From Candidatus Bathyarchaeota archaeon (GTDB lineage: Archaea; Thermoproteota; Bathyarchaeia; Bathyarchaeales; Bathycorpusculaceae), in contig CAWGZR010000005.1 in the NCBI GenBank assembly GCA_963827165.1, positions 416,001 through 480,000 on the forward strand: a stretch of DNA of 64,000 nucleotides. The letters run 5' to 3'. The notes below the pieces were generated by a model. It was given only the letters and a program-made list of their open reading frames with translations. It was not told the origin of the DNA and did no database searches. The first letter of the stretch is position 1. Each line of letters begins with the position of its first letter. A program made the position numbers and the translations under genes. Shown piece by piece: positions 21,697 through 36,399 of the stretch.

Positions 21697-23145
21697 ATGT
21701 CGGGAGCAGATGTTAAGAAGCCAGAAACTCGGGAAGAATTTGTTAAAGTGTTGACAGAAGCCGCGAAAAAAGAAGTTGATTTGAAAAATAGGCCGACAAA
21801 ACCGACAATCGTCGGAACGGCAAAAGAAATGGACATTCATCGAGATACACTTTATAGTTGGTTGAAAGAATTTAATGTCGATTTTAAAGAGGTGGGCGAC
21901 CGCGTACCGACAGCTATTGCAGATGCCCCAGAAAAAAAATCCGGAAGCATTTACTTAATCGGGGAATCTCTGGTTGGGGAAGGAAACGAAGTTGCACACA
22001 TCGACCTTATGATTGGCAATAAGGATGGCCCAGTGGGGCAAGCCTTCGCCAATGGCATGACAAGCCTGTCGGCGGGGCACACGCCGCTACTGGCCGTTAT
22101 TAGACCCAATTTGCCGTCTAAACCTCACACGCTAATCGTACCCAAAGTAACCGTGAAGAACATGGAGGATACGGGAAAGATTTTTGGTCCCGCTCAGGCG
22201 GCGGTTGCCAAAGCCATCGCTGACTCCGCAGAAGAAGGAATCATTCCACGCGAGCACCTAGACGACTGGGTTATAATCTGCAGCGTTTTTATCCATCCGC
22301 AAGCAGCTGACTTCAGAAGAATCTACCAGTACAATTATGGCGCAACAAAAATGGCGCTCCAACGTGCACTGAAGAATTACCCATCGTTCGAAAAAATGAT
22401 CTACGAAAAAGACCGTTCAAAGCACCCCATCATGGGCTTCAAAGTTCCGCGCCTATGGAGGCCACCATATCTGCAAATTGCATTAGACGCGCCAAATCTT
22501 GAAGGGGCAAAGAAGGTTCTTGAACAACTGCCAGGAAGCGACAGAATCATAATTGAAGTCGGAACCCCCCTCATAAAACGGTACGGCACACGCGTAATCA
22601 ACGAGCTGCGCCAAACCGCGAAAGCCAAAGACAAATTTGTGATAGCAGACCTCAAAACCCTTGATGTGGGCAAAGTTGAAGTAGACATCGCATACGAAGA
22701 CACGGCAGACGCAGTTGTCGCAGCAGGCTTAGCACCTCCAGAAACGCTTGACGCAACGGTTTCAGAAGCCAGACGTATGGGAATCTACGCAGTCATAGAC
22801 ATGCTAAACGTGGAAGATGTTATGGCAAAGCTGAAGTCAATTAAAGATTTACCGGATATTGTCATACTGCACAGAGGCATTGACCAAGAAAGTGGCAGAA
22901 CCTGCGGACTCGAACGCATAAAAATGATACGGGACGCCTTCCCAAACAGGAAACTCCTCATAGCAGTTGCCGGAGGAATCGTGCCGGAAACCGCTAAAGA
23001 AGCCTTGGAGCTTGGCGCAGACATCCTAATCGTCGGCAGATACGTCACTCAGAGCAGAGACATCGTTCGGGCAGTAAGAGACTTCCTTGAACTAACACCA
23101 GCCATGCGTGAAGACATCGATCTCTACAGAGTACACACAGAATAA
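21697..23145 (+). CDS. fae-hps: Bifunctional formaldehyde-activating enzyme / 3-hexulose-6-phosphate synthase with extra N-terminal HTH
   Basis: Fae: GEGNEVAHIDLMIG, GPAQAAVAKA; Hps: PYLQIALD, IEVGTPLIK, ADLKTLD, LHRGID. Confidence 0.92.
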   Translation: MSGADVKKPETREEFVKVLTEAAKKEVDLKNRPTKPTIVGTAKEMDIHRDTLYSWLKEFNVDFKEVGDRVPTAIADAPEKKSGSIYLIGESLVGEGNEVAHIDLMIGNKDGPVGQAFANGMTSLSAGHTPLLAVIRPNLPSKPHTLIVPKVTVKNMEDTGKIFGPAQAAVAKAIADSAEEGIIPREHLDDWVIICSVFIHPQAADFRRIYQYNYGATKMALQRALKNYPSFEKMIYEKDRSKHPIMGFKVPRLWRPPYLQIALDAPNLEGAKKVLEQLPGSDRIIIEVGTPLIKRYGTRVINELRQTAKAKDKFVIADLKTLDVGKVEVDIAYEDTADAVVAAGLAPPETLDATVSEARRMGIYAVIDMLNVEDVMAKLKSIKDLPDIVILHRGIDQESGRTCGLERIKMIRDAFPNRKLLIAVAGGIVPETAKEALELGADILIVGRYVTQSRDIVRAVRDFLELTPAMREDIDLYRVHTE

Positions 23146-23211
23146 AACCGAGCGAAAGCTCATCAACTTTTTCTTTTATTTATTTTTTAATGTTGTTGCT
23201 TCAGGAGAATC

Positions 23212-23545
23212 GCCCATCTATCGCCAACTATATCTTTTGTATGATAGCCTTCTTTTGCCGTTGACTTTTATTGACTATTACTGACTATTACAGACTACTA
23301 TCGACTATTAAAGACTATTACAGACTATTAAAGACTCAACCTGCAACCAATCCAAACCCTAAATCAAAAAAGCAACCCAAAACACAAAGAAAAAAATTTC
23401 CGCGCCGAAAACCCGCCGTCCGTTCCTACTTCCAAAGGGTTCTTCTATCGTCACCCGAAATTTTTCGGGATATTCTAAGATGGTTTGAGATGATTGTGGC
23501 ACCCAAATCAAGCCTAAACCAAGAAAAAACAGCCTAAACCATCCC
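23212..23545 (+). repeat. Composite repeat element, copy A (two modules of 10-bp array plus conserved segment)
   Basis: 8 x nnGACTATTA at 23261-23336, conserved segment 23337-23431, 3 x GAT-initiated decamers 23469-23498, truncated second segment; homologous to reverse complement of 35495-36070. Confidence 0.85.
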
Positions 23546-23625
23546 CAAAGACGGGGGAACCTTACTGAGAGAGCGGATATGGTTTTTATAAACAAAACCA
23601 ATCACACGAGACACACCTAACCATT

Positions 23626-24876
23626 TCATCTAAAAAGTTTCAAAGTTAAGAAGGCAACTAAGAAAAAAACGGCTGTTATAACGAACATTGGGGTGTAGTT
23701 GAGGCTGAATGCAAGGAATGGCCCTAGGAAGGCACCTATGGCTGATCCTAAGCCGACGAGGCCGTCGAAGAAGCCGGCTTTTCCTTGGGGTATAACCTCC
23801 ATTGAGAGGGAAAGCATCATAATGTAGTACATGGCGTAGGCGAACCCCATGAAAATCAGCAAAATTCCCGTCATAATTGTGGGCGCCAAAGCAAACACGA
23901 TGACCCCGACTAGCGCAAAAATAAGTACGCTACGCAGGAGGACAAAACGCGGCATCTGCTTTCGTATATCCATTGAATGTGCCCGATGCGCGATCAGAAA
24001 ATACCCTGTTGTCCCTCCAACAGAGTTCAAGATATATGCGACGTAAACCCAGCTTGTCGACAAGCCTAAACCGTCTCTAAGAAAAATCGGCAACGGAGTG
24101 AAGAACAGGCTCGTTGCAAGAGCAAACAAAACTATCGCTAAAGCAAACCCAGCGAAACTCTCCTCCTTTAGCGAACCGTTCCAACGCAGCCCATCCATAA
24201 GCCTCGAAGAACCCTCTAACCCGCGATTAGCAATATCCATCTTTCTCTCTATGGCAACCAGACGCCTCTCAAAAATCAACAACGGGTCAGCAACAAGCAA
24301 CGCCGCCAAAACCAAAGCCACCACGCTCAAAACGCTGCAGATATAAAACGTGTAATTTGACAAAACAGAGAAACTGAAAGTAGACGCAAAAAGAATTATT
24401 CCCATTGCCAAACCGGAAATTGTGCCTAGTTCAGTTATACCTTCATAAACCCCGAAAGTTCTTTCCCAATCGTTGCGGCTGTAATGCTCTGTAACGAGCA
24501 CATTCTTTGGCGATTCATGTGCCACATGAAGCATTTGCATAGCCACGTACAAGGCAACGAAGACTATTAGATTCTGGGCAAAAGGAAGCGTCATGAGGAA
24601 AAGAATCAGGGCTATCGAAGCGAAAGCAAGAAGAATGAAGATTTTGTAGTGACGTGTAGCATCGCAGAGGTACCCCCAGAGAAACGAGGCAGGAATCGAG
24701 CAAAAAATCGCAATTGAAGTCATAACGCCCAAGGCAAGCAACGGCCCGCCCAAGATACTGGTGTTCTTAAAAGCAATGACATAGAGTGGAATGAAGACGG
24801 TTAGTAATCCGAAAGCCATGTCATGAAAGAAGAACCCCAACCGCCACATAGCAAAAAATGCACTCCTATGTTGCAT
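23626..24876 (-). CDS. MFS transporter
   Basis: About 12 TM helices, WGYLCD motif-A variant. Confidence 0.88.
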   Translation of the reverse strand: MQHRSAFFAMWRLGFFFHDMAFGLLTVFIPLYVIAFKNTSILGGPLLALGVMTSIAIFCSIPASFLWGYLCDATRHYKIFILLAFASIALILFLMTLPFAQNLIVFVALYVAMQMLHVAHESPKNVLVTEHYSRNDWERTFGVYEGITELGTISGLAMGIILFASTFSFSVLSNYTFYICSVLSVVALVLAALLVADPLLIFERRLVAIERKMDIANRGLEGSSRLMDGLRWNGSLKEESFAGFALAIVLFALATSLFFTPLPIFLRDGLGLSTSWVYVAYILNSVGGTTGYFLIAHRAHSMDIRKQMPRFVLLRSVLIFALVGVIVFALAPTIMTGILLIFMGFAYAMYYIMMLSLSMEVIPQGKAGFFDGLVGLGSAIGAFLGPFLAFSLNYTPMFVITAVFFLVAFLTLKLFR

Positions 24877-24998
24877 TAAAGCTTTTGCCTGCCCAAAACG
24901 GACTTGCTTAAAAAAGGCTACTCAGACACGTTTTGCATATAAATCCTTAATAGAGAGATGCCCCAAATTCATACTCCGCTGGAGAGTAAAATCAGCAA

Positions 24999-25403
24999 AT
25001 GGCAAAATTCAAGATAATAGTGTCAGACCCTGAAGCGGGAACATCAAAAGTTGTAGAGCTAGAAGAAGCAAGAGCAGCACCATTCATTGGTAGACGAGTC
25101 GGAGAAACCATTGACGGCTCAATAGTTGACTTACCGGCTCACAAAGTGCTAATAACTGGTGGATCTGACAAAGATGGCGTCCCAATCAGAGGAAACGTAC
25201 ACGGCGGAGTCCGACGAAGAGTCGTCCTAAGCGGCGGAGCAGGCTTCAAACCAGAGAAAAAAGGAGAAAGAAAACGCAAAACAGTCCGAGGAAGCACCTT
25301 AACCGACGAAATCGTCCAAATCAATATGAAAATCGTTGAGAGACCAGGCGCAAAACCCGCCGAAGCCAAGCCAAAGCAACCCGCAAAACAAGCGACAGTT
25401 TAG
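24999..25403 (+). CDS. rps6e: 30S ribosomal protein S6e
   Basis: ITGGSDKDG, GERKRKTVRG. Confidence 0.96.
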   Translation: MAKFKIIVSDPEAGTSKVVELEEARAAPFIGRRVGETIDGSIVDLPAHKVLITGGSDKDGVPIRGNVHGGVRRRVVLSGGAGFKPEKKGERKRKTVRGSTLTDEIVQINMKIVERPGAKPAEAKPKQPAKQATV

Positions 25404-25480
25404 AAGACTGTTTGCTTAAACCTTATAAACTTCTATAGTTCTTTCATAATTCATTACGTTTATTTAGAGAAGAGAAAAAC

Positions 25481-26734
25481 ATGAGTGACGCGAATAAAGT
25501 GCTGCCTAAGCAGCCGGAAGTCAACGTTGGCACAATTGGTCATGTAGACCACGGAAAAACAACTTTGGTGCAAGCGTTAACTGGCACATGGGCTTCCAGA
25601 CACAGCGAAGAACTCAAAAGAGGAATCACCATCAAACTGGGCTATGCGGACATGCCCATTTACAAATGCCCTAAATGTCAACCGCCCAACAATTACACTC
25701 ACAAGCCATACTGCGAAAAATGTGATTCACCCGCAGAATTTGTCCGAGCAATAAGCTTTGTCGACGCACCTGGACATGAAGCATTGATGGCAACAATGCT
25801 TAGCGGCGCAGCAATCATGGACGGCGCAATCCTTGTTATAGCGGCTGATGAACCGTGCCCTCAACCGCAAACCCGCGAGCATCTTGCAGCGGCGGAAGTC
25901 AGCGGAATCAAAAACCTAATTATTGTACAGAACAAAATTGACATCGTAGATCAGAAAAGAGCACTAGAAAGCTACAACGAAATCAAAAACTTCATCAAAG
26001 GAACAGTCGCTGAAAAAGCCCCCATCATCCCAATCTCAGCCCAAAGAAGCATAAACATCGACGTACTGCTCACCGCAATCGAAACAATCATACCCACGCC
26101 AAAAAGAGACGAAACTAAAGACCCACTCATGTACATCGTCCGCTCTTTTGACATTAACAAACCGGGAACCACAATAGATACTTTAGAAGGCGGCATCATT
26201 GGCGGAACAATCGCTCAGGGAAAATTCGTTGTTGGAGAGGAAATAGAGATTCGCCCAGGAATCAGCGTTGAAAGAGAAGGCAGGACTCTCTATGAACCGC
26301 TTATCAGCGAGATAGTCAGCCTTCACGCAGGAGACCAATGCGTGAAAGAAGCCACATGTGGAGGATTGGTAGGCGTTGGAACCTTGCTTGACCCATCTTA
26401 CTCAAAAGCAGATGGCTTAACAGGAAGCATTGCAGGAAAAGTTGGAATGCTTCCACCTACTCTTACAGAGATCACATTAGAAACCCATGTGTTGGAACGA
26501 GCAGTTGGAACAAAAGAATTGCTTAAAGTCGAGAAATTCAACCCAGACGAGCAACTTTTGCTTCACATTGGAGCGGCTGTAAATGTCGGTAAAATCCTCA
26601 GCATAAAGCAAAACGTCATAAAAGTGAAGCTGACAAGACCAATTTGCGCCCTTCCGGGTTCAAGAGTTGCCATAAGCAGAAAAATCACTGCGCGCTGGAG
26701 ACTCATCGGATACGGACTCATAGTGACGAAGTAA
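25481..26734 (+). CDS. eif2g: Translation initiation factor aIF2 gamma
   Basis: GHVDHGKT, EELKRGITIKLGYA, DAPGHE, NKID, WRLIGYG. Confidence 0.97.
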   Translation: MSDANKVLPKQPEVNVGTIGHVDHGKTTLVQALTGTWASRHSEELKRGITIKLGYADMPIYKCPKCQPPNNYTHKPYCEKCDSPAEFVRAISFVDAPGHEALMATMLSGAAIMDGAILVIAADEPCPQPQTREHLAAAEVSGIKNLIIVQNKIDIVDQKRALESYNEIKNFIKGTVAEKAPIIPISAQRSINIDVLLTAIETIIPTPKRDETKDPLMYIVRSFDINKPGTTIDTLEGGIIGGTIAQGKFVVGEEIEIRPGISVEREGRTLYEPLISEIVSLHAGDQCVKEATCGGLVGVGTLLDPSYSKADGLTGSIAGKVGMLPPTLTEITLETHVLERAVGTKELLKVEKFNPDEQLLLHIGAAVNVGKILSIKQNVIKVKLTRPICALPGSRVAISRKITARWRLIGYGLIVTK

Positions 26735-26735
26735 G

Positions 26736-27176
26736 TCAATATTCTACGGGTTGTATTATTCCTTTTTTCTTCAGAAAATCTTGCGCTTTCTGCAAAACAT
26801 CTTTGGAGTTTTTGAAACTTAATTTCTCCAAAGCATGTTTGTAATCCAGCCAAATGTAACCTACATGTTCAAAAGACAATTCTACCTTGTCGGTGAAGGC
26901 TTCCATAACGAAGAAGACCACTTCTTTATGGACAGTCAACCCTTGTCGCCTATAGAAGTAGGCGATAGCTTCCCTAAAGTCGTCTATAAACTGTGCGCCA
27001 GTTATGCTTGTTTCCTCTTGTAATTCACGCACAACAGTCTGTTTCTCACTTTCGTTAACTTCGACGTTACCCTTTACGAAATCCCAATGCCCAGCTGCAT
27101 AGTTCAAAAGAAGATATTTCGCGGTATCATCTTTTCTTATGAATACCACTGCACCGCAGGATTTTTCGCGAAGCAT
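26736..27176 (-). CDS. NUDIX hydrolase (Ap4A hydrolase-like)
   Basis: HWDFVKG...RELQEET Nudix box, LSFEH. Confidence 0.9.
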   Translation of the reverse strand: MLREKSCGAVVFIRKDDTAKYLLLNYAAGHWDFVKGNVEVNESEKQTVVRELQEETSITGAQFIDDFREAIAYFYRRQGLTVHKEVVFFVMEAFTDKVELSFEHVGYIWLDYKHALEKLSFKNSKDVLQKAQDFLKKKGIIQPVEY

Positions 27177-27335
27177 ACATTCACCTGACTGCTGCTCAAA
27201 TCATTTACTCAAGCTATTTAAATTAACTGTTAATTCGGGGATCCATCAGATACATCAAATAGGAAAGAAACGAGATTAACAAAATGTTTAAGCAGACAAA
27301 AAACAATCTTTCCGAGAGATCAGGGGCCACGTAAC

Positions 27336-27758
27336 GTGTCAAACCCGCACAAGTCAAACGAACCGCTAAAAATTATCTTGGATTCAAACGCGTTTTTTAT
27401 TCAGCTAGAATTGAAAATCGACGTCTTCGAGGAAACAAAACGCTTGCTGAACAGAAATCTCGATTTTATCCTGCTCTCACCAGTTAAAAATGAGCTTGAG
27501 TTGTTGGCAACCAAGGATTCGCTAAAAACACGCAGAGAAGCCGCATATGCATTGAAGCTATCTGAAAAATGCAGGCTTGTCGCCGTTGAAAACTCCGAAA
27601 AAATGGCAACTGACGATGTAATACTCAAGGTTTCTAAGGCATGGAATGCGCCCGTGTTCACAAATGATAGACAACTAAGGAAGAGGCTAAAAGATATAAG
27701 TGTGCCAGTGATTTATGTGAGACAAAAATCGCGCCTAGATATTGACGGATTGATATAA
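27336..27758 (+). CDS. PIN-domain protein (Fcf1/Utp24-like)
   Basis: ILDSN, TDD, TNDRQLR; conserved position before rpoE. Confidence 0.88.
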   Translation: MSNPHKSNEPLKIILDSNAFFIQLELKIDVFEETKRLLNRNLDFILLSPVKNELELLATKDSLKTRREAAYALKLSEKCRLVAVENSEKMATDDVILKVSKAWNAPVFTNDRQLRKRLKDISVPVIYVRQKSRLDIDGLI

Positions 27759-27760
27759 CT

Positions 27761-28348
27761 ATGTTTAAGCTGATAACTCTTCAGGATACTATCCGCATTC
27801 CTCCAGAAACCTTTGGCAACCCTCTAGAAAAGGTTGGCCGTGAACAGGTAAAACAGAAGTATGAAGGTGTCGTCGACGAGGAGTTGGGATACGTAATCGC
27901 AGTCACAACAATTGAAGTGAGCCCCATCGGAAAAATTATCCCAGGCGACGGAGCAACATACCACAAAGTATCATTCTCCCTACTAACATTCTATCCGGTA
28001 ATCCAAGAAATCGTAGAAGGCGACGTAGTTGAAATCGCAGATTTCGGAGCTTTCCTTCGAATAGGACCAGTAGACGCTCTCCTTCACGTTTCGCAACTCA
28101 TGGATGACTACATCTCATACGATGAAAAACAAGGAGTCCTGCTTGGGAAAGAAAGCAAAAGAAAGCTGCAGGCAGGTGATCAAGTGCGCGTTAGAATAAC
28201 TGCCGTTTCACTTGGGCGAGCTGGAAGCTCAGGAAAGATCGGTGTAACAGCCAGGCAACCATTCCTAGGTAAACTAGATTGGTTAAAGGAACCATTTGGA
28301 GCTCCAGTTGAAAAGAAACAAGTGGAACCTAAAGAGAAAACAGAGTAA
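27761..28348 (+). CDS. rpoE1: RNA polymerase subunit E' (Rpo7)
   Basis: IRIPP, IIPGDGA, FGAFLRIGPVDALLHVSQ, RQPFLGK. Confidence 0.96.
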   Translation: MFKLITLQDTIRIPPETFGNPLEKVGREQVKQKYEGVVDEELGYVIAVTTIEVSPIGKIIPGDGATYHKVSFSLLTFYPVIQEIVEGDVVEIADFGAFLRIGPVDALLHVSQLMDDYISYDEKQGVLLGKESKRKLQAGDQVRVRITAVSLGRAGSSGKIGVTARQPFLGKLDWLKEPFGAPVEKKQVEPKEKTE

Positions 28349-28363
28349 AGGAGCGAAATGTAA

Positions 28364-28549
28364 TTGAGTGAAAAAGCATGCGCTAACTGTCATTTCATAA
28401 CGAAAGAAAATGTGTGTCCAAAATGTCGCTCGACAAGCTTCAGTGAAGACTACAGCGGCCTAGTCGTAATGTTTGACCCTGAGACCTCAGCAATCGCCAA
28501 AGCCATGAACATCAAAGAGAAAGGCAGATATGCCCTAAAAGTACGTTAA
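28364..28549 (+). CDS. spt4: Transcription elongation factor Spt4 (RpoE'')
   Basis: CANC..CPKC, GRYALKVR. Confidence 0.95.
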   Translation: MSEKACANCHFITKENVCPKCRSTSFSEDYSGLVVMFDPETSAIAKAMNIKEKGRYALKVR

Positions 28550-28616
28550 CCATTTTTTTAAAGTAATAAGTTCATAGCCCAAAAGACTCTTCTCTTTGGG
28601 TCAAGAGGTTGAAGCG

Positions 28617-29165
28617 ATGACTGTAGAATACGCGTTAACACCTGAACTTCGAATCAAACTTAAAGACCCCTTCGGCACCCTTATTCGAGGCACATTCGAC
28701 GAAACAATGGCTAAAATGAAGCAGTTAATCAAAGAAGAGAAGCCGCCCAAACTAATTTCAGTCGGAGATGTAGTTTCCGTCAACCTTCACAAGCACAGAA
28801 TTAACCCACAATTGACAATAATCGATAACAAGTCCCTTAGAAGTCAAGCGATGCCGGAAACGGCCAAAGTGGAAAAAACCATCTGTGTCGTTAATCCCCA
28901 AGGAACGATAACCAAGGAAGCAGCGGCAGCGGTCAAGGATGCTTTAGATAAGAATGAACACACGCACATCGTTATCGATGGCGAAGAAGACTTACTAACG
29001 TTGATCGCGGTTTATTATGCTCCTGAAAACTCTTTTGTAGTGTATGGTCAACCCTACACAGGAATTGTTCTCGTCAAGGTTACTCAGCAGAAAAAATGTC
29101 AGGTTGAGAAATTTCTAAAATCCATGCAAGTCTTCGAAAAGCTAAATAGGAAGAAGATTGTTTGA
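28617..29165 (+). CDS. GTP-dependent dephospho-CoA kinase (DUF359)
   Basis: VGDVVS, DGEEDLL, YGQP. Confidence 0.9.
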   Translation: MTVEYALTPELRIKLKDPFGTLIRGTFDETMAKMKQLIKEEKPPKLISVGDVVSVNLHKHRINPQLTIIDNKSLRSQAMPETAKVEKTICVVNPQGTITKEAAAAVKDALDKNEHTHIVIDGEEDLLTLIAVYYAPENSFVVYGQPYTGIVLVKVTQQKKCQVEKFLKSMQVFEKLNRKKIV

Positions 29166-29189
29166 ACTAACCGCTTTAAGTGAACATTT

Positions 29190-29501
29190 ATGCAGATAAA
29201 AGTAGATTCAAGCAAGGATAACCCGCTTCTGAAGCGAAGAGAGGTAGGCTTCACAATAATTATGGGTCCCAAAGAGAAGACTCCGCCGAGGCTTCAAGTC
29301 AAGACAGCTTTAGCTATGGAGATGAAAATTGGGGACGACGTGGTGTTCATTAAGAGGATGCACACAAAAACCGGAACAAACATTACACAAGGAGACGCGA
29401 ACGTTTACCAAAAAGCAGAGCAGGCCAAAATAGTTGAGCCTGAATACATCCGCAAACGCAACAGTCCACCTGAGAAACCCAAAGAAGAGGCGACAGCATA
29501 A
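29190..29501 (+). CDS. rps24e: 30S ribosomal protein S24e
   Basis: NPLLKRREV, EPEYIRKRN. Confidence 0.95.
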   Translation: MQIKVDSSKDNPLLKRREVGFTIIMGPKEKTPPRLQVKTALAMEMKIGDDVVFIKRMHTKTGTNITQGDANVYQKAEQAKIVEPEYIRKRNSPPEKPKEEATA

Positions 29502-29788
29502 TGTCCAAGAAACCTCCAGTAGCTAAAAAAGAAGAACCAGCCAAAGCAGCACCCGCCGCAACACCAGAAGCAACGGCAGCAGCGCCAGCAAAGAAAGCTG
29601 AGAAAGGAAAAAGAGAGAAGAAGCATAAAGAAGAAAAAGGAGTCAAAGCAATGTACAAGGTCGAAGGCGACAAAATCTCTCGAGCGCGTCCAACTTGCGA
29701 GCGATGTGGACCCGGCTACTTTATGGCAGATCACCATGACAGGTACACTTGTGGCCACTGCGGATTCACTAGGTACAAACAGAAATAA
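29501..29788 (+). CDS. rps27ae: 30S ribosomal protein S27ae with low-complexity N-terminal extension
   Basis: CERCGPGYFMADHHDRYTCGHCG. Confidence 0.95.
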   Translation: MSKKPPVAKKEEPAKAAPAATPEATAAAPAKKAEKGKREKKHKEEKGVKAMYKVEGDKISRARPTCERCGPGYFMADHHDRYTCGHCGFTRYKQK

Positions 29789-29835
29789 ACAGTTTTAAAT
29801 CCTGCTGAAGCGTTTAGGTTCTGGGTTGACCAACA

Positions 29836-30264
29836 ATGCTTAGAGTAAACGTTGTCATAACGAGCATTTCTGCCGAACGCTTTTGGGATATGAGGAAACC
29901 TATCCCGCCAATTCAAATCAACACTAACATCAATGTTGTCGGCATGGAAAAGAAGCAGGATGAATCTTTGGAAGTCCCATTTGTTCTTTCAATTACCTTT
30001 AATCCGTCAATAGCTCAAATGAGCCTGAAAGGAAACGCTTATGTTACAGGCGAAAAAGCCGAAGTTGATAAGGTTCTGAAAGATTACGAGCAAAAGAAAC
30101 CTCCAGCACAAATTGTAATCCAATCAATATCAAATGTTGTTTTCATCGAGTCAGTGTTAATATCGAGAATACTTAACATTCCACCTCCAATTCCGCTACC
30201 TCAAATAGCTGAAACTGGAAAACCACAAAGCTCCAAACCAGAAGGAAGAGACTACAGCGCCTAA
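29836..30264 (+). CDS. Conserved archaeal hypothetical protein (possibly SecB-like fold)
   Basis: ITSISAER N-terminus, NIPPPIPLP C-terminus. Confidence 0.75.
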   Translation: MLRVNVVITSISAERFWDMRKPIPPIQINTNINVVGMEKKQDESLEVPFVLSITFNPSIAQMSLKGNAYVTGEKAEVDKVLKDYEQKKPPAQIVIQSISNVVFIESVLISRILNIPPPIPLPQIAETGKPQSSKPEGRDYSA

Positions 30265-30272
30265 TTGTAGCT

Positions 30273-31787
30273 CTATAGGAACCCCTTAGATTTTCTGGCA
30301 ACAGCATCAGCAATTTTTAGTTCGACAGGAAAAGCAAAGTACCTATGTTTCCAACGGTACTTTTCAATTTTGTTCATAATTGAGTAAGCCATCTTGAATG
30401 TGAAACCGCGTTCTTTTATTCTCTCTGCAGGGAAAAAAGCAAGCCGGCTAACAGCTGAAATCGTATGTAGTTTTGCCACTTGCTTGTTGCTGTGCCACGG
30501 CGGGTCAAAATGGAAAACGTGAATGCTACCCCATTCTTCAAGCGACTGAGGAGGAGAAAAACCCGATGGCAACACATGGGTTAAGGGACTTGGAAAAGGC
30601 GTGTAGACGAATATACCATAATGCTGAGTTTTCGGGTTCACTTCAGCCATTTTATCCATTAAATCAAAAGTTTCCTTGAGGTCTTCGTCTGTTTCTCCTG
30701 GCAAACCGCTCATCCATGACACGTAAGGTTCGATTTTAGGTGCCCAAGCCTTAAGGTTTGCAACAGAGCGGAGCATTTGGCCCGCAGTCACGTCCTTGCA
30801 GATAAGTTCCTGAAGTCGATGTGAACCCGATTCGCCCCCGAAATCAAGCTCAACGCAGCCAGCTCGCTCCAAAAGACCGAGAAACTCTCTGTCGTAAGTG
30901 GACAAATAATCGAATCGGCAGTTAGCCCGCCACTGAATATGTATTTTTCTGTCTAGGATACCTTGACAGATTTCTTGAACTCTCTGCTGATCCACGAAAA
31001 CATTGTCGTCGATGGGATCAATTATTTTAACGTTCGGAAACTTTGTCAGTATGTATTCTATTTCGTCGAGAACGCGATTGGCGCTTTTTGCCCGCCACCT
31101 ATTCTTATTAAATAATGTGTTGTAGCAGAAGCCGCATCTGTGGGGACATCCTCTACTGGTTTGGATGTGGAATCTGCCTGATTTCACCGACGGATAGTGG
31201 TCCATTTGTAGAAGATCGTAGGGCAGCTCGATGGGTATGTCGTCTAAATCGATTACTGTGCCGTCGAGGTTGCTTTTGATTTCGCCGTTGACTTGGTAGG
31301 TTATGCCTGCGACGTTATCGAGCCGTTGACCTGACGCAAGCGCGTCGGCCAAGTCCTTGATTATTAGCTCTCCTTCTCCCCGAACCACGATATCCACGTA
31401 GTCGTTGATTGCGGTTTGTTCAGGCAGTAAGGTTGGGTGGACGCCTCCCCAGACCAGTGTGCAGGACGGATTTTGCGTTCGCATAAAACGGGCGAATTCC
31501 AATGCGTATTTGATTTGCAGGCCGCTCATGCAGCTGATGCCCACGAAGAAAGGGTCGCCGATTTTGAAGCGGCGGTAATCCTCGAGTCGCATGTCGAGGA
31601 CTCTCACAGTGAAGCCTTCTTCTTGCAGACTTGCGGCGATGTGAAGGGTGGCCAGTGGAACTTGAGGGTCAGGCGCTTTGAATTTTCCGGGAAAAACAAG
31701 CAGGACCTCTTTTTCTTTGCCGCCTGCGGTCAGGTTGCAGGAATCAGATAGGCACGTATGGGATCTGTGCACTTCAAAAAGCCTCAT
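30273..31787 (-). CDS. Cobalamin-binding radical SAM protein
   Basis: WGGVHPT and VRGEGE B12-domain motifs; TSRGCPHRCGFC. Confidence 0.92.
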   Translation of the reverse strand: MRLFEVHRSHTCLSDSCNLTAGGKEKEVLLVFPGKFKAPDPQVPLATLHIAASLQEEGFTVRVLDMRLEDYRRFKIGDPFFVGISCMSGLQIKYALEFARFMRTQNPSCTLVWGGVHPTLLPEQTAINDYVDIVVRGEGELIIKDLADALASGQRLDNVAGITYQVNGEIKSNLDGTVIDLDDIPIELPYDLLQMDHYPSVKSGRFHIQTSRGCPHRCGFCYNTLFNKNRWRAKSANRVLDEIEYILTKFPNVKIIDPIDDNVFVDQQRVQEICQGILDRKIHIQWRANCRFDYLSTYDREFLGLLERAGCVELDFGGESGSHRLQELICKDVTAGQMLRSVANLKAWAPKIEPYVSWMSGLPGETDEDLKETFDLMDKMAEVNPKTQHYGIFVYTPFPSPLTHVLPSGFSPPQSLEEWGSIHVFHFDPPWHSNKQVAKLHTISAVSRLAFFPAERIKERGFTFKMAYSIMNKIEKYRWKHRYFAFPVELKIADAVARKSKGFL

Positions 31788-32038
31788 TAGAAGATTAGCG
31801 AGAATGTGCTTTAAACCTTTCTTGATGCTGCTTAAGAGCGGTTCAGAATAGCAACTTTTGCTTGCCTCTCATTCGACAGCTTCCCTGGGAAAGCCATAGC
31901 TATCCACCAGAAACCAAAGGAAAACTTGCAGACAGCATGTTACGGGAGCGGCCGGGAAAGTCGCAACTTTCACCACGGCAAAAGTCTCAACTTAAAAAAC
32001 GCAAGAACCGAAAAAAGAAATAGAATTGAAAAAAACGT

Positions 32039-32443
32039 TTATTTAAGCGGCACATACATCGAAGAACGTGACGCACCGATTCCTGGAGTTCCATGTCTAA
32101 CGGGTTTGTTTGTTATTGCGAATTCGCCTGTATAGTGTCCGATCATTTCAGGTTTTATTTCAACCGCAACGAATTCTTTGCCGTTATGTATCTGGATTTT
32201 AACGCCGACCATTTCGGGCAGAATAATAAGGTCTCGAACGTGAGTTTTAAGGTTGACTTCTTTGCCTTGCTTTTGTGCTTCCTTAGCTTCACGCAGCTTT
32301 TCTAGCAGTATGCGTTGTTCGGGGGTTAAACCGCGTTGAAGGCTTCTTCGCTGTCTTGAGGGAAGTAGATTGATGAATTCATCCATAGACATCCCTGTCA
32401 AATTGGCCAAGCTTTGTCCGCGGTAACTAAATTCTTTCGGCAT
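32039..32443 (-). CDS. rps19: 30S ribosomal protein S19
   Basis: [24 protein letters not shown]. Confidence 0.97.
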
Positions 32444-32496
32444 TTTTCATCTTCACCTTAAACTCTTTCTAAACGCTATAAACCTTATCCCCGATT

Positions 32497-33237
32497 CTAG
32501 CGGATTGCTCGCTTCTTTTTCTGCCCCGGGCCTCTTGCAGCGATTAAGCCTACTTTCTGTCCTGGTGGAGCGCCATGTGAAGTCGTTGTGCATCTGCGAG
32601 AGCTTCGTTTGCTACTTCCATATGGATGGACAGCTGGAACCATTTTACGTCCGCTCGTTCTCGGGTACTTGTGGCCTTTAGCTTTCATTAGATGGAATTT
32701 TTCGCCTGCTTTCAGAAAAGGCTTCTCGATTCTTCCCGAGGCGGAAACCACGCCTACGGTTGCTAAGCAATAATCGTCAACGTACCTAGTTCTTCCTGAG
32801 GGTAACCTAATCATTGTACCTTGAGGTGTGTGACCGACAACGGTTGCGTATGCGCCTGATGATTTTGCCATTTTGCCGCCGTCGCCTGGCCGGAGTTCTA
32901 TTCCACAAACGATTGTTCCTTCAGGTATCTTTCCCAGTGAAACGATGTTGCCTATTTCAGCAGGTGCATTTCCGCCGTAGGTGATTTGTTGCCCTGTGGA
33001 GACGCCTTCAGGGACAATCGTGTAAAATGACAATCCGTTTGCGAACTTTATTAGTGAAAGGGGTGATCCTCTGCCTGGATCATGCATTAGTTCTTGTACT
33101 GTGCCGCTTAGTGAGGCGTCGAATGATTCTTTTGGCGTTATCGCGGGGTATTTTGCTGGAGCAACTCGTTTATGAGTGGAAGCTCGCCAGTTTCGTCCGC
33201 CGCGACCGCGTCTCTGAACACGAATACGTTTTCCCAT
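32497..33237 (-). CDS. rpl2: 50S ribosomal protein L2
   Basis: MGKRIRVQRRGRG, HDPGRG, GQKVGLIAAR. Confidence 0.97.
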   Translation of the reverse strand: MGKRIRVQRRGRGGRNWRASTHKRVAPAKYPAITPKESFDASLSGTVQELMHDPGRGSPLSLIKFANGLSFYTIVPEGVSTGQQITYGGNAPAEIGNIVSLGKIPEGTIVCGIELRPGDGGKMAKSSGAYATVVGHTPQGTMIRLPSGRTRYVDDYCLATVGVVSASGRIEKPFLKAGEKFHLMKAKGHKYPRTSGRKMVPAVHPYGSSKRSSRRCTTTSHGAPPGQKVGLIAARGPGQKKKRAIR

Positions 33238-33257
33238 AAGTCATGCATCCAATCAGT

Positions 33258-33518
33258 TTATAATATTCCTAGTTTAATTGCGACGTCTGAAGCCTTAAAT
33301 TCAGGTTTTAGTTTCACGAAGGCTTTCTTCACGCCTTGCGGGGTAATAAGCAAGTTTATTTTGTTTACTTTTACCTCGTAGAGTTCTTCAACAGCTTTTC
33401 TTATGTCGTTTTTTCCAGCTTTAATGTTTACGATGAAGATCAGTTTGTTATCTTTCTCAACCATTACGCTTGCGGATTCTGTCATTAACGGGTAAAATAT
33501 AACATCATTGATTTCCAT
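33258..33518 (-). CDS. rpl23: 50S ribosomal protein L23
   Basis: PLMTE, KKAFVKL. Confidence 0.96.
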   Translation of the reverse strand: MEINDVIFYPLMTESASVMVEKDNKLIFIVNIKAGKNDIRKAVEELYEVKVNKINLLITPQGVKKAFVKLKPEFKASDVAIKLGIL

Positions 33519-34312
33519 TATTCGGTTTCTCCATGACTGTAGAGTTTATCTAAACTTTCGATCGCGCCACTGGTCCAAAGAGTCAATCTGCCCGGATGAG
33601 TTCCAGGCGCTAACATTTCAGTGTTAAGATTTTTGACCGTGGTTACTTGTACTCCTGGAACGTTGCAAGCAGCGTTTTCCAATCCTTTATTGTCAACTAC
33701 TACAATTAGCGGTCCAACGGCTTGCTTCATTTTTCGGCCTCTGTGCTTGCCTTTGCCCGCGCGGATTTTTCGGCTGTCTCGAACGCGGGTTATGTCGTTT
33801 AGTACGCCGAGTTTTGTTAGGGCTTGCTCGACTTCTTTTGCCTTTGTTAAGCTTTCAATGGCGTTGTCAACTATTAGAGGTATGTCTACGACGTCTTGAA
33901 TCTTGTGTCCACGCGAAGCTACGGTTTCTTTTTGAGCTGTTGCAGCAATCGCCGAAAACAACGCTAATTTTGCCTCCTTTTTCGGGATGCTTTTTAGTAT
34001 TTTCTTTTCGGCTTTTGGAGGATGAGGTTGTCGTCCTTTGACTGTGCTTGGAGCAAAAGCTGCTCTTCCGCTGCCGCCCTTGATGCGGGGGATTCTTGCT
34101 GTTCCGCTACCTGTTCCTCGTGATTCGGCGCTTGTCCTTTTTCCAGCCATCGGGTCTCTGCCTTGCGGCTGTAACCTGCTTGACTGTATGGCTAGGACTG
34201 CTCGTTTTATGATGTCGGGTCGAAGAGGCGTAGAGAATACGCTTGGAAGCGTGACGTTGCCGGTTGATTCGCCCTGTAAATCGAAGATTTTCGCTGTTTT
34301 TTGCTGTGACAT
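33518..34312 (-). CDS. rpl4: 50S ribosomal protein L4
   Basis: RPDII, IRAGKGK.RGR, LAPGTHPGRLTLW. Confidence 0.97.
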   Translation of the reverse strand: MSQQKTAKIFDLQGESTGNVTLPSVFSTPLRPDIIKRAVLAIQSSRLQPQGRDPMAGKRTSAESRGTGSGTARIPRIKGGSGRAAFAPSTVKGRQPHPPKAEKKILKSIPKKEAKLALFSAIAATAQKETVASRGHKIQDVVDIPLIVDNAIESLTKAKEVEQALTKLGVLNDITRVRDSRKIRAGKGKHRGRKMKQAVGPLIVVVDNKGLENAACNVPGVQVTTVKNLNTEMLAPGTHPGRLTLWTSGAIESLDKLYSHGETE

Positions 34313-34325
34313 AACTTTTTCAACC

Positions 34326-35339
34326 TTACTTTCCTTGTGGTGATTCCAGCGACACGTATGTTACTTGTGGCGGCGCTTCAGGGATTTCCCGTGGTGGACG
34401 TGCTGGAACACGTAAGCGGATTTGGCGTTTTTCTGTTCCTGGGATGCTTCCTTCCATGAGTATGTATGGCCCTTTAACTTCGCCGTAGCGTATGTATCCA
34501 CCTTTGACGGTTACTTCTTTGCCGTCTTTGCCGATTTTGAGTATGCGCTTGTTGAATTCTATACGTTGGTGATAGCCCATTTGTCCCGCTCGTGGAATAG
34601 AGTACATGAGGTGATGTGGGTTCCATGGACCCAAAGTGGCAATTCCACGTTTGGTTTTGCGGCCTTTATGCTGCAGTTTGGTTACTCCCCAACGTTTAAC
34701 TGGTCCTTGGAAGCCTTTTCCAACTGTGACTCCTGCGATGTCGATGTATTGTCCGTCTTTGAAAACTTCTTCAGGCGTCACTGTTTTGCCTAAAATCTGT
34801 TTGGCATATTCAAGCTGCTGTGCTATAGTGCCTCCGCCAATTTGGACTTCACATGCGTCAGGCTTCTTCTTTGAGAGGCTTGTCTGGGTAGGTTGTGTTG
34901 CTGTAATTACTCTTACGATTGTTGTGTTTTCAAGGTTCTGCTGGAGTTTGTCAAGCATTGCTTCTGTGTCAAAGTTTTCTGGCAGAACCATCATGCGGTC
35001 CAGGATTGCTGGTGGATCTTTCATCCATGCCTCGCTGATGTTCTGGAGCCCGTATGGCGTTTTGGTGTAAGTTCGGATGCCGCAGACAATGATCGGCGGC
35101 GTCTCGAGTATGGTTGCTGCCCGCATGACTTCTTTGCCGAAGTTGGGTGAACGTTTACGGTCTTCGATGGTGAAGACATATGTCATGCCTGCTTTGTACG
35201 CTGAGAAACCAAGCAGCCTTGGAGAATCAGATTCTATTTTTGGCCAATATCGGATCCGCGCAACTGGATTCTTAGCGCGTTTCCTAGGTAAATAAGCAAG
35301 TGAACCATGCTTAGGAGCGTGAGTTTTACGATGTCCCAT
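34326..35339 (-). CDS. rpl3: 50S ribosomal protein L3
   Basis: GSLAYLPRKRA, YKAGMT, GKGFQGPVKRWG. Confidence 0.97.
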   Translation of the reverse strand: MGHRKTHAPKHGSLAYLPRKRAKNPVARIRYWPKIESDSPRLLGFSAYKAGMTYVFTIEDRKRSPNFGKEVMRAATILETPPIIVCGIRTYTKTPYGLQNISEAWMKDPPAILDRMMVLPENFDTEAMLDKLQQNLENTTIVRVITATQPTQTSLSKKKPDACEVQIGGGTIAQQLEYAKQILGKTVTPEEVFKDGQYIDIAGVTVGKGFQGPVKRWGVTKLQHKGRKTKRGIATLGPWNPHHLMYSIPRAGQMGYHQRIEFNKRILKIGKDGKEVTVKGGYIRYGEVKGPYILMEGSIPGTEKRQIRLRVPARPPREIPEAPPQVTYVSLESPQGK

Positions 35340-35494
35340 AGATTATCCGCTTCGCGCCATTAGCAAATATAAGGAGAGGTAATAAACATTACCGTCAAAA
35401 ACTGTAAAGGAAAGCGCACAATCAAGTTTCGTTTTCGGCTTTGTTGTGGCTGACTTTTTTGTTGTTTTGAGTGTAGATTTTTGAGTTGAGACCT

Positions 35495-36070
35495 TTGGTT
35501 TTTGGAAATTTCGACTTTTCGCAGGGGTTCTTTGTGTTTTTGGTTGCTTTCGTGGAATAAAGCTTGGATTGGTTACAACTGTAGGCTAGAATATGCTATA
35601 ATATGTTATAAGACGCTATAATGAGCTAGAAAAGGATGGAAAATACAATACGGTCAACGCTGGGAAGAAGAAGTGGAAGTTTATGGCGGTTTTGATTTTT
35701 TTTCGCAGAATTTTTTCTTTGTTTTAGATTGGTTTTTTGGTTTGGGGCTTGGATCGGTTGCGACTAGTCTCCCAAAACATCGTGAAACATCTCAAAACAT
35801 CGCTGGAAGAAACTGTGAAGTAGGAGCGGATAACAGGTTTTTGGGTCGGAAATTTTTTTGCTTTGTGTTTCAGATTGCTTTTTTGCATCAGGGTTTGAAT
35901 CGTCTTCAGGTTGCGTCATGAAACGTCACTAAACGTCATGTAACGTCATAAAAAGTCATGAAACGTCGCCAAACGTCATAAACCGTCACAAAACGTCACT
36001 AAAAGTCAACCAAAGTCAACAGGTGGCCACTACCGTCACTTAAGATAAAAGTCAAAGATCGTGATGGGAG
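35495..36070 (-). repeat. Composite repeat element, copy B (three modules of 10-bp array plus conserved segment), inverted relative to copy A
   Basis: 11 x AAACGTCAnn at 35911-36020, 3 x AAACATC at 35772-35801, 5 x nnnnGCTAKA at 35581-35630; each followed on the minus strand by a related A/C-rich segment. Confidence 0.85.
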
Positions 36071-36277
36071 AGCGAACGCGCAGATAGATTTCTTTTTTTG
36101 GGGGGGCTTGAAGGTTTCTGTGGACTGCGACTTTCGTTTGGGAATTGGTTGTTGAATTGCGTTTGGTTTTGGGGCGTCTTTTGTGTTGCTTTGTCATAGC
36201 AAACAGTAGACCCTCCTGCGCTGGTCAGTTTCCGTTAGAAAACGTTTTTACAGCCCAGACACAAATCCTATACCTGC

Positions 36278-36399
36278 GCCGGGGTGGCGGAGTGGTTAAC
36301 GCGCCAGCCTCGAGATCTAACAAAAGAGGGCTAAGCCAAAAGGCAAGTTAGCTGGTGGGCTTCGTGCTCGCAGGGGTTCGAATCCCTTCCCCGGCGCCA
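36278..36399 (+). tRNA. tRNA-Ser (CGA) with ~35-nt intron at 37/38 (36315-36349), CCA encoded
   Basis: Acceptor GCCGGGG/CCCCGGC, discriminator G, anticodon stem CCAGC/GCTGG, long variable arm, GTTCGAAT T loop. Confidence 0.9.

Follow-up and report, generated by a model that had tools for sequence, protein, structure and literature searches.

Helically phased 10-bp repeat arrays dispersed in a Bathyarchaeia genome: candidate operators of MraZ-like proteins and their gene-less copies

What do short head-to-tail DNA repeats with a period of 10 bp do between the genes of an uncultured archaeon, and which protein, if any, reads them? This question is raised by a stretch of 64,000 nucleotides (here called the window; NCBI GenBank assembly GCA_963827165.1, contig CAWGZR010000005.1, positions 416,001 to 480,000) from a Candidatus Bathyarchaeota archaeon of the Bathycorpusculaceae, in which two intergenic regions about 12 kb apart, region A (23212-23545) and region B (35495-36070), contain such arrays coupled to a conserved segment. 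The original prediction, made from the sequence alone, took the two regions for inverted copies of an undescribed modular repeat family and suggested either a chromosomal site presenting its repeats on one helical face, a non-autonomous mobile element or a family of non-coding RNAs (ncRNAs). Here we report that array and conserved segment, the latter called the core in the following, form modules that recur throughout the genome and that stand directly upstream of the genes of a small protein of ~92 amino acids (aa). A and B are orphan cassettes of this kind, i.e., array and core without the gene. The explanation that we favour, and that we hold to be moderately probable, is that the arrays are operators of MraZ-like proteins, that the core is the promoter region, and that A and B are orphan copies of this control region.

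The genome under study, G000 (3.13 Mb in 14 contigs, an assembly 94.5% complete), was compared with genomes of other species and genera, which are numbered G001, G016 and so on; C1, C3, C5 and the like are contigs of G000. Each module consists of a 10-bp-period array of 2-12 units, which stands in fixed register with a C/A-rich core of ~59 nt. Tandem Repeats Finder places four arrays of this period in the window, at 23261-23330 (7.0 copies), 35921-36008 (8.8 copies), 35773-35803 (3.1 copies) and 35585-35622 (3.8 copies). The homology of A and B, first aligned by hand at 75-80% identity with one indel, was recovered by a blastn search of the whole genome, in which the segment 23337-23445 matches the reverse complement of 35817-35913 at 79.4% identity over 97 nt (E 4e-17). 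A core profile built with nhmmer in three rounds finds four strong cores in the window (E 9e-12 to 1e-9, 34-41 bits), compared with a top score of ≤6.6 bits in five mononucleotide shuffles of the window. There are two modules in region A, a strong and a decayed one, and region B contains three strong modules as well as older core-like remnants at ~36096-36194, outside the bounds first drawn for it; the original count of three modules in B stands, and that of two in A stands with the qualification that the second is decayed, its core scoring only 3.8 bits, which is inside the shuffle background. The stretch 23399-23560 matches other copies at E 9e-9 (blastn), and because the composite of module 1, linker and module 2 aligns with four other two-module loci (C5:182694, C5:677851, B1-B2 and C10:371974), module 2 of A is a decayed but homologous member of the family. 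The strong core of A, in turn, shares 88-91% identity with five other array-plus-core copies in G000. With units of 10 bp that follow one another head-to-tail and without spacers, the arrays differ from those of clustered regularly interspaced short palindromic repeats (CRISPR), in which repeats of 24-48 nt alternate with unique spacers, as had been stated from the beginning. A reading of the core as an encoded peptide (QPATNPNPKSKK..., by eye) was rejected as well, since the copies differ by indels and 10-bp arrays cannot hold a reading frame.

Searching G000 with a profile seeded with the first 66 nt after the array of A (cut-off E ≤1e-3) gave 10, 82 and finally 85 matches in successive rounds. 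These 85 cores are found on all 14 contigs, 48 on the plus and 37 on the minus strand, and they occupy 62 intergenic loci, of which 45 are single, 11 double and 6 triple, with mixed orientation in none. What had looked like a single inverted pair is 2 of 62 loci, and the element is indeed dispersed, as one of the original options held. The proposed architecture of a 10-bp array followed by a conserved segment is seen throughout: an array precedes every core (85/85), with 6-12 units in 60 of them. The register is identical in all types of array, G being present at phase 3 in 74% of the units, and information content climbs towards the core. About a dozen unit types recur, namely GATGTT (11), GACTTT (11), GACGTT (8), GAGATT (8), GACTAT (7), GCTTAT/GCATAT (9), GTCTAA/GTATAA (6), GTCAAA (4), GACGGT (4) and others. 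Among the 24 other species of the genus the DNA family occurs in 15 and is absent from 9, and in other genera of the same order 0 of 16 genomes yielded it. This copy number of 62 loci and the patchy distribution rule out the function of a single chromosomal locus. Among the 80 matches listed, every profile-confirmed locus belongs to a metagenome-assembled genome of Bathyarchaeota/Bathyarchaeia, and every record named as another group fails the profile. A viral origin was considered and rejected: the core pattern occurs in seven viral contigs, none of which holds a real core by profile (best E 0.04).

Which gene, then, do these modules belong to? Among the 248 open reading frames (ORFs) flanking the loci no transposase or other recurrent neighbour is enriched, and only the ~92-aa protein recurs. 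By tblastn this protein has seven copies in G000, five intact genes (C1:49642-49920, C7:3043-3333, C10:65800-66078, C10:79785-80060 and C10:89725-90003) and two pseudogenes, and an array with its core lies directly upstream of all seven; each copy begins 20-100 nt past the distal end of the array and reads away from it, divergent from the direction that had been taken as the sense of the modules. Throughout the genus the protein profile finds the family in 36 of 61 genomes, several of which have 8 to 11 matches, many of them fragments or interrupted copies. In a genus-wide linkage sample of 74 loci, 68 with a full-length gene, the profile identifies a core beyond the upstream array in 60 of the 68, and a visibly decayed core is present in 6 of the remaining 8. 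Because core and array precede the gene in these 60 of 68 loci, the complete unit can be described as core, 10-bp direct-repeat array, short spacer with a Shine-Dalgarno-like GGAG, and start codon of the gene. Furthermore, presence of module and protein agrees in 22 of 24 genomes (G001-G024), with both in 14 and neither in 8. It is the gene of this ~92-aa protein, rather than cdc6, par or smc genes, with which the modules are physically linked. The genes adjoining the five intact copies in G000 are unrelated housekeeping genes and tRNAs, and neither a dcw cluster nor a toxin gene or a partition nucleoside triphosphatase (NTPase) lies beside any of the five.

Beside 79 of the 85 cores no coding remnant was detected, either with the protein profile in three frames over 520 nt past the array or with a DNA profile covering the 5'-most 120 nt of the gene, both of which recover only the seven known copies. 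An exception is the orphan at C5:220370, which by eye keeps about the first 12 codons of the protein gene. Homologues of the protein also occur in other genera of the class (10 of 197 genomes from outside the genus), and by eye these show a TATA element, then 10-bp repeats and then the start codon. In one distant homologue from another family of the class (locus L239 in G227), nine AATAGACAGA-type 10-bp units lie 130-230 nt upstream and do not abut the gene. Within G000, one of the pseudogenes (C5:885622) shares 96% identity with the C1 copy along the cassette and the initial ~95 nt of the gene and is far less similar beyond (C1:49826-50081 compared with C5:885461-885716), which looks like gene conversion of its 5' part. 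As to tRNA genes, two of the intact protein genes are directly followed by one, and 7 of the 62 loci lie ≤600 nt from one, a weak association given a null mean of 3.0 and 35 of 1000 random placements reaching 7.

The protein has no family of its own in Pfam, and none of three G000 proteins matches any Pfam entry at E ≤0.01. An AlphaFold2 model calculated from 60 aligned relatives (predicted local distance difference test, pLDDT, 85.9; predicted template modelling score, pTM, 0.77) consists of two beta-beta-alpha-beta halves. The best Foldseek match of this model is PhS018 of Pyrococcus horikoshii (PDB 2GLW; E 4e-6, TM 0.72), followed by MraZ chains with a probability of 0.97-0.99 and TMq of 0.44-0.49. 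The protein profile compared with PDB sequences likewise finds 2GLW (E 3.5e-4 over residues 8-73), and AbrB-family chains score weakly (E 0.47-0.65). Model and Foldseek matches display two tandem swapped-hairpin (AbrB-like) repeats in one chain, as in the MraZ family, and the protein is predicted to be a single-chain swapped-hairpin barrel that is closest to PhS018 and next to MraZ. PhS018-like proteins comprise 795 clusters at 90% identity; in the 120 clusters listed of these 795 no Pfam domain is found, and those that bear a name are mostly called 'hypothetical protein'. Some relatives are automatically annotated as 'PrlF antitoxin-like'.

The sequence of the array unit follows the clade of the protein in a tree of 67 gene-linked units. 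The five intact paralogues of G000 all stand next to different unit types, and the GACTATT type, to which the main array of A belongs, has its resident cognate gene at C1:49642-49920. Similar pairings recur across the genus: proteins with the motif 'KSERIQIP' go with GTGTCT units, 'QK[QK]NR..+K[SN]GRIRIPDL' proteins with GTAC units, and non-Arg 'N[KTA]VQIP' proteins with A/G-rich ..ACG../..GTCGC.. units. In the R-x-Q-[IV]-P motif the first Arg has been lost by one clade, whose units are A/G-rich with CG; in this single clade, the units could reflect a changed contacting residue. Protein distance and unit distance are correlated (Mantel r 0.24, reached by 0 of 2000 permutations, with kin that are not independent). 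Because gene and array are linked in addition to this dependence among kin, we regard the tracking of clade by unit as supportive of specificity, not as decisive.

We propose that the module is the control region of genes encoding ~92-aa single-chain swapped-hairpin DNA-binding proteins of the AbrB superfamily, which would resemble PhS018 and MraZ. Every 10-bp unit would be occupied by one protomer, a pseudo-dimer, always from the same helical face. Assembly over the 2-12 units would be cooperative, like that of MraZ on boxes spaced by 10 bp, with each paralogue recognizing its own unit sequence. The idea of sites presented on one helical face to a protein would in this way be retained, the arrays being tied to the gene of a small swapped-hairpin protein. 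The transcription factor B recognition element (BRE) and TATA element of the core would point into the array, the bound array would cover start site and leader, and the protein would repress its own gene. Orphan cassettes, ~80 in G000, may have been copied to or recombined into intergenic sites.

The favoured direction, in which the core is the promoter of the gene and the array an operator over start site and leader, draws on several features of the units. The tRNA genes of G000 carry AAAGC-TTAAAT-like BRE/TATA elements, and among 54 distinct gene-linked cores of other species, 26 show TTAAA at one constant position, as GCAAAGC-TTAAAT towards the array, so that transcription would start within the first unit of the array. 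Array and start codon are ≤20 nt apart in 34 of 67 units, and an A/T-rich octamer at -55 to -26 from the start codon is absent in 26 of 66 units. In addition, the gene-facing strand of the core carries T7 and T6 runs that would stop incoming transcription.

A number of observations weigh against this explanation. The TATA region is nearly as good when reversed (AAACA-ATTTAAG), and TTAAA is kept in only 4 of the 85 G000 cores, most of which read CTTGGATT or CTTGAATC, i.e., poor TATA boxes, including four of the five cores beside intact genes. An A/T-rich octamer near the gene, a possible proximal promoter, is present in 40 of 66 gene-linked units, and in one clade a clear AAACGC-TTAAGTAT element stands 35 nt ahead of the start codon; because many gene-linked units have such a possible proximal promoter, the core could serve as a second, divergent promoter or, with its T-runs, as a terminator/insulator. 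At the level of the protein, the Pfam profile of MraZ (PF02381) matches 1 of 60 members with E 0.084, and that of AbrB/MazE/SpoVT (PF04014) matches neither the G000 proteins nor the 60 members. More than half of the G000 orphans are of unit types without an intact resident gene (GATGTT, 11; GACGTT, 8; GCTTAT plus GCATAT, 9; GTCAAA, 4; GACGGT, 4). Orphans also show no orientation bias towards neighbouring genes over the 62 loci (29 vs 33 and 31 vs 31), which makes a regulatory role for most of them doubtful. Two peat metatranscriptome runs, kept as assembled contigs, hold 8-9% of sampled words, and their contigs cover the window's neighbouring genes at 100% identity. Near A only two contigs are found, overlapping 23334-23381 and 23343-23400 and bearing foreign flanks, which in one are array-like, the other being probably an unrelated A-rich match. 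Because the contigs carry no strand, starts or levels, they do not decide the direction of the promoter.

Might the core instead fire away from the array, that is on the plus strand in A, so that the array would be an upstream operator and the core would drive short ncRNAs, antisense RNAs or genes such as the rpl3 operon downstream of B? The reversed element AAACA-ATTTAAG resembles several tRNA promoters, conservation stops ~25-30 nt beyond the TATA region as expected at a start site, many gene-linked units own a proximal TATA-like element, and all three modules of B would point at rpl3. However, 33 of the 62 loci have a convergent gene on the far side of the core, and nothing is conserved downstream of the core across the 58 gene-linked units read, a downstream motif TGTTGTTCTTCT... 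that is conserved in some relatives not being general among them. Moreover, the protein gene would then be without a visible promoter in 26 of 66 units. We regard this opposite direction as possible and rather unlikely.

How did so many gene-less cassettes arise? Module content differs between species at the sites of both A and B, which means that both gain and loss of cassettes occur. At A, the spacer between the convergent genes measures 484 nt in G000, compared with 44-84 nt in 20 of 29 other species; five species have other insertions there, and two loci are unmeasurable from tblastn matches. A different insertion (…GAATAAGCCAAAACACC.GCTGCCTTAACGCTTA..TGCTGCCTATTTGG…) is shared by four species in this spacer (loci L129, L131, L137, L138), which appears to be a hot spot for several elements. 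At B, the distance from the rpl3-side block to the tRNA-Ser block is 812-821 nt in G000, with three strong cores, compared with 264 nt in G016 and 308 nt in G051, with one weak core each. G053 and G016 carry TGCGACTTT-type modules in the orthologous rpl3/tRNA-Ser spacer, of which G000 retains a remnant at ~36096-36194; judged from this comparison, the remnant is probably the ancestral module of the spacer and the three modules B1-B3 were added in the G000 lineage. In the same spacer of G020 (locus L275, G020:C124), about six tandem units of ~95-100 nt (TTTACCTATTGAAGTTTGATGTAAATAGTAGACCCCTCCC...) lie where G000 has B1-B3, and a AGTAGACCC(C)TCC motif is present just upstream of the tRNA-Ser promoter in G000 (window ~36215-36235) and G051. 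Recent duplicates within G000 share 93-96% identity, and their ends coincide exactly with the distal array unit or the core A-run. One 95%-identical duplicate (C3:82714-82945 and C6:39874-40106) ends inside the core, at C3:82945/C6:40106, with differing array types beyond. A junction inside the core suggests that cores also act as portable homology for recombination, by which modules would be reshuffled.

The same turnover could be the work of a true non-autonomous mobile element, similar to miniature inverted-repeat transposable elements (MITEs) or to REPINs of repetitive extragenic palindromic (REP) sequences, which would be copied by an enzyme encoded elsewhere and whose link to the protein gene would be secondary, as a 'master copy' or passenger. 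The 85 copies in 62 intergenic loci, their sharp ends at the first array unit and the core A-run with an interior that is 88-96% identical, and the variable module content at A and B would suit such an element. Its insertion would be random with respect to gene orientation, the spacers holding loci being 34 tandem, 15 convergent and 13 divergent, near the 2:1:1 expected for random placement. Against it, no transposase family is enriched among the 248 flanking ORFs, no target-site duplication is seen by eye at the ends of seven GACTATT-type copies, and A and B have no terminal inverted repeats but only internal 12-17-nt pairs with 76-92% complementarity. Two further observations, the junctions inside cores (C3:82945 vs C6:40106) and the codons retained by the orphan C5:220370, fit homologous recombination and deletion rather than transposition. 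Overall, we consider a mobile element of this kind unlikely. A MITE in the strict sense is rejected by the lack of terminal inverted repeats, and a REPIN with its REP-associated tyrosine transposase (RAYT) is rejected as folding is no better than in shuffles and the associated protein is AbrB-like, not a HUH transposase.

A variant that we find distinctly improbable is that PhS018-like proteins and their arrays form a self-propagating system, in which the array-assembled protein would promote copying or recombination of cassettes into new intergenic sites. Should this be true, it would amount to a mobile element without a canonical transposase, and to fast-diversifying, mutually orthogonal regulator/operator pairs, each with its own genomic sites.

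Still less credit is due to the idea of an ncRNA family, in which modules would be RNA genes and the arrays would act as RNA, e.g., as protein-bound repeat RNAs or sponges. If the favoured promoter direction is right, transcription would run through the arrays as leaders, and from orphans it would yield short repeat RNAs that stop at the T7/T6 runs of the following core; the two RNA-library contigs overlapping the core of A, which carry no strand and of which one is probably unrelated, lend weak support. However, the AbrB/MraZ fold is known as a DNA binder (PMC4333400). Only tRNAs reach the Rfam gathering score, the best other match (E 0.7) being to the terminator region 23131-23189; folding energy is no better than that of shuffles on either strand (z -0.79 to +0.43), and the C/A-rich core cannot pair with itself. 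A GCTTT/AAAGC hairpin noticed by eye in cores of relatives is not kept in the G000 cores. Lastly, chromosome-architecture sites, i.e., centromere-like sites, origin iterons or sites positioning histones or structural maintenance of chromosomes (SMC) proteins, can hardly be meant, even if the strict 10-bp period, in which G(A/T)C halves alternate with T-rich ones, is reminiscent of bent or positioning DNA and the ParR/parC and omega-type centromeres are also direct-repeat arrays before an autoregulated gene, since there are 85 copies on all 14 contigs, the family is absent from 9 of 24 sister species, the modules are not syntenic at A, the unit types are about a dozen and sequence-specific instead of a shape-only signal, and none of the five intact G000 genes has a partition NTPase as its neighbour.

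The features of the two regions and of their surroundings are collected in Table 1. Region A sits between the 3' ends of two convergent genes, one of which fuses a formaldehyde-activating domain to a hexulose-phosphate-synthase-like domain of the OMPdecase family and is 81-91% identical across the genus. Region B is bounded by a tRNA-Ser gene with a BRE/TATA-like element of its own, AAAACG-TTTTTAC; this gene was missed by ARAGORN in default mode and found by Rfam and by the intron mode of ARAGORN.

Table 1. Features of regions A and B in window coordinates. For modules the strand is the direction of the favoured promoter reading; the sense originally assigned to the modules of A was +.
Feature	Coordinates	Strand	Description
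A array 1	23260..23339	-	Type GACTATT, 8 units of 10 bp, the one adjoining the core being AAAGACTCAA
A core 1	23340..23400	-	~59-nt C/A-rich, ends in A7T3; putative promoter region; nhmmer 23341-23397, E 9e-12
A linker between modules	23401..23467	.	Common to four other two-module loci
A module 2	23468..23545	-	3-unit GATG-type array ~23468-23499 and decayed core ~23500-23545
B1 array	35911..36020	+	11 units of 10 bp, type GACGTTT
B1 core	35855..35910	+	nhmmer E 9e-10; 79% identical to A core
B2 array	35765..35803	+	~4 units, type GATGTTT
B2 core	35709..35764	+	nhmmer E 1.4e-9 (match 35709-35763)
B3 array	35580..35631	+	~5-6 units, type GCATATT
B3 core	35528..35579	+	nhmmer E 2e-10
Decayed core-like remnants with TGCGACTTT units	36096..36194	+	Direct-repeat families D3, D5, D7; adjoin tRNA-Ser
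Intron-bearing tRNA-Ser	36278..36396	+	Rfam tRNA 49.7 bits; ARAGORN intron mode, C5:452278-452399
Ribosomal protein L3 gene	34326..35339	-	Pfam Ribosomal_L3 E 4.5e-85; bounds B on the core side, by its start
Fae/Hps fusion gene	21697..23145	+	Pfam Fae E 1e-70, OMPdecase E 2e-34
Major facilitator superfamily (MFS) transporter gene	23626..24876	-	Pfam MFS_1 E 5e-27; convergent with the Fae/Hps gene

If arrays are operators of the proteins whose genes they precede, a fold that is an orphan of structural genomics would gain a function that can be tested, as PhS018-like proteins are here proposed to be autoregulators of long 10-bp direct-repeat operators. The mode of MraZ, with protomers on helically phased boxes, would extend to archaea, with arrays up to three times longer. 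The paralogues and their differing units would represent a natural library of related protein/operator pairs, useful to study the evolution of specificity and as a source of orthogonal parts. The control region of a regulator would, moreover, be the most abundant dispersed repeat of a genome, and this may be one way in which the intergenic DNA of an uncultured lineage acquires scattered binding sites, promoters and terminators. In the literature we found no account of these Bathyarchaeia repeats, in line with their being called an undescribed family at the outset, nor of a function for PhS018-like proteins.

How do these units compare with known systems? The ParR/parC and omega-type arrays consist of head-to-tail repeats of 7-11 bp that are bound cooperatively on one face by a small autoregulator; the proteins that bind them are of the ribbon-helix-helix type and work with an NTPase partner, and there is one locus per replicon. 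The system described here has a different fold, no NTPase and dozens of loci. In REPIN-RAYT systems a RAYT type is paired with its own REP type, and similarly, few gene copies, each with its own repeat type, are found here next to many gene-less intergenic copies. Numerous gene-less intergenic repeats, and promoter sequences that are reused apart from their gene, are described for REPIN-RAYT and for 'putative mobile promoters' (PMC8049555, PMC3575422). In contrast to REPIN-RAYT, there is no palindromic hairpin and no HUH transposase, and the protein is a predicted small DNA binder without a catalytic domain. Proteins of the AbrB/MazE/SpoVT type have the swapped-hairpin DNA-binding fold and autoregulate their own promoter (PMC4333400); they are homodimers of one half-domain, whereas the protein here is a fused pseudo-dimer, and unlike the antitoxins among them it has no toxin gene beside the five intact G000 genes. 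PhS018 (2GLW) is the best match in sequence and fold, and both proteins have 92 aa. It is described as uncharacterised, with a predicted ability to bind DNA in the manner of AbrB-type domains, and, unlike what we see here, no operator or repeat array is reported for it there (PMC4333400). Closest to the mode of action proposed here is MraZ, which binds 3-4 GTG(G/T) boxes with 6-nt spacers, i.e., with a 10-bp period, upstream of its own gene, cooperatively and as an octamer, the start site lying inside box 1 (PMC12957436). As in MraZ, a single chain that the model divides into two swapped-hairpin halves is encoded behind 10-bp-period direct repeats that precede its own gene. Unlike MraZ, the system has an archaeal host and no dcw cluster, the protein measures ~92 aa compared with 126-141 residues for the listed MraZ chains, the arrays comprise 2-12 units instead of 3-4, and a genome carries many paralogues with different unit sequences together with ~80 gene-less copies of the control region.

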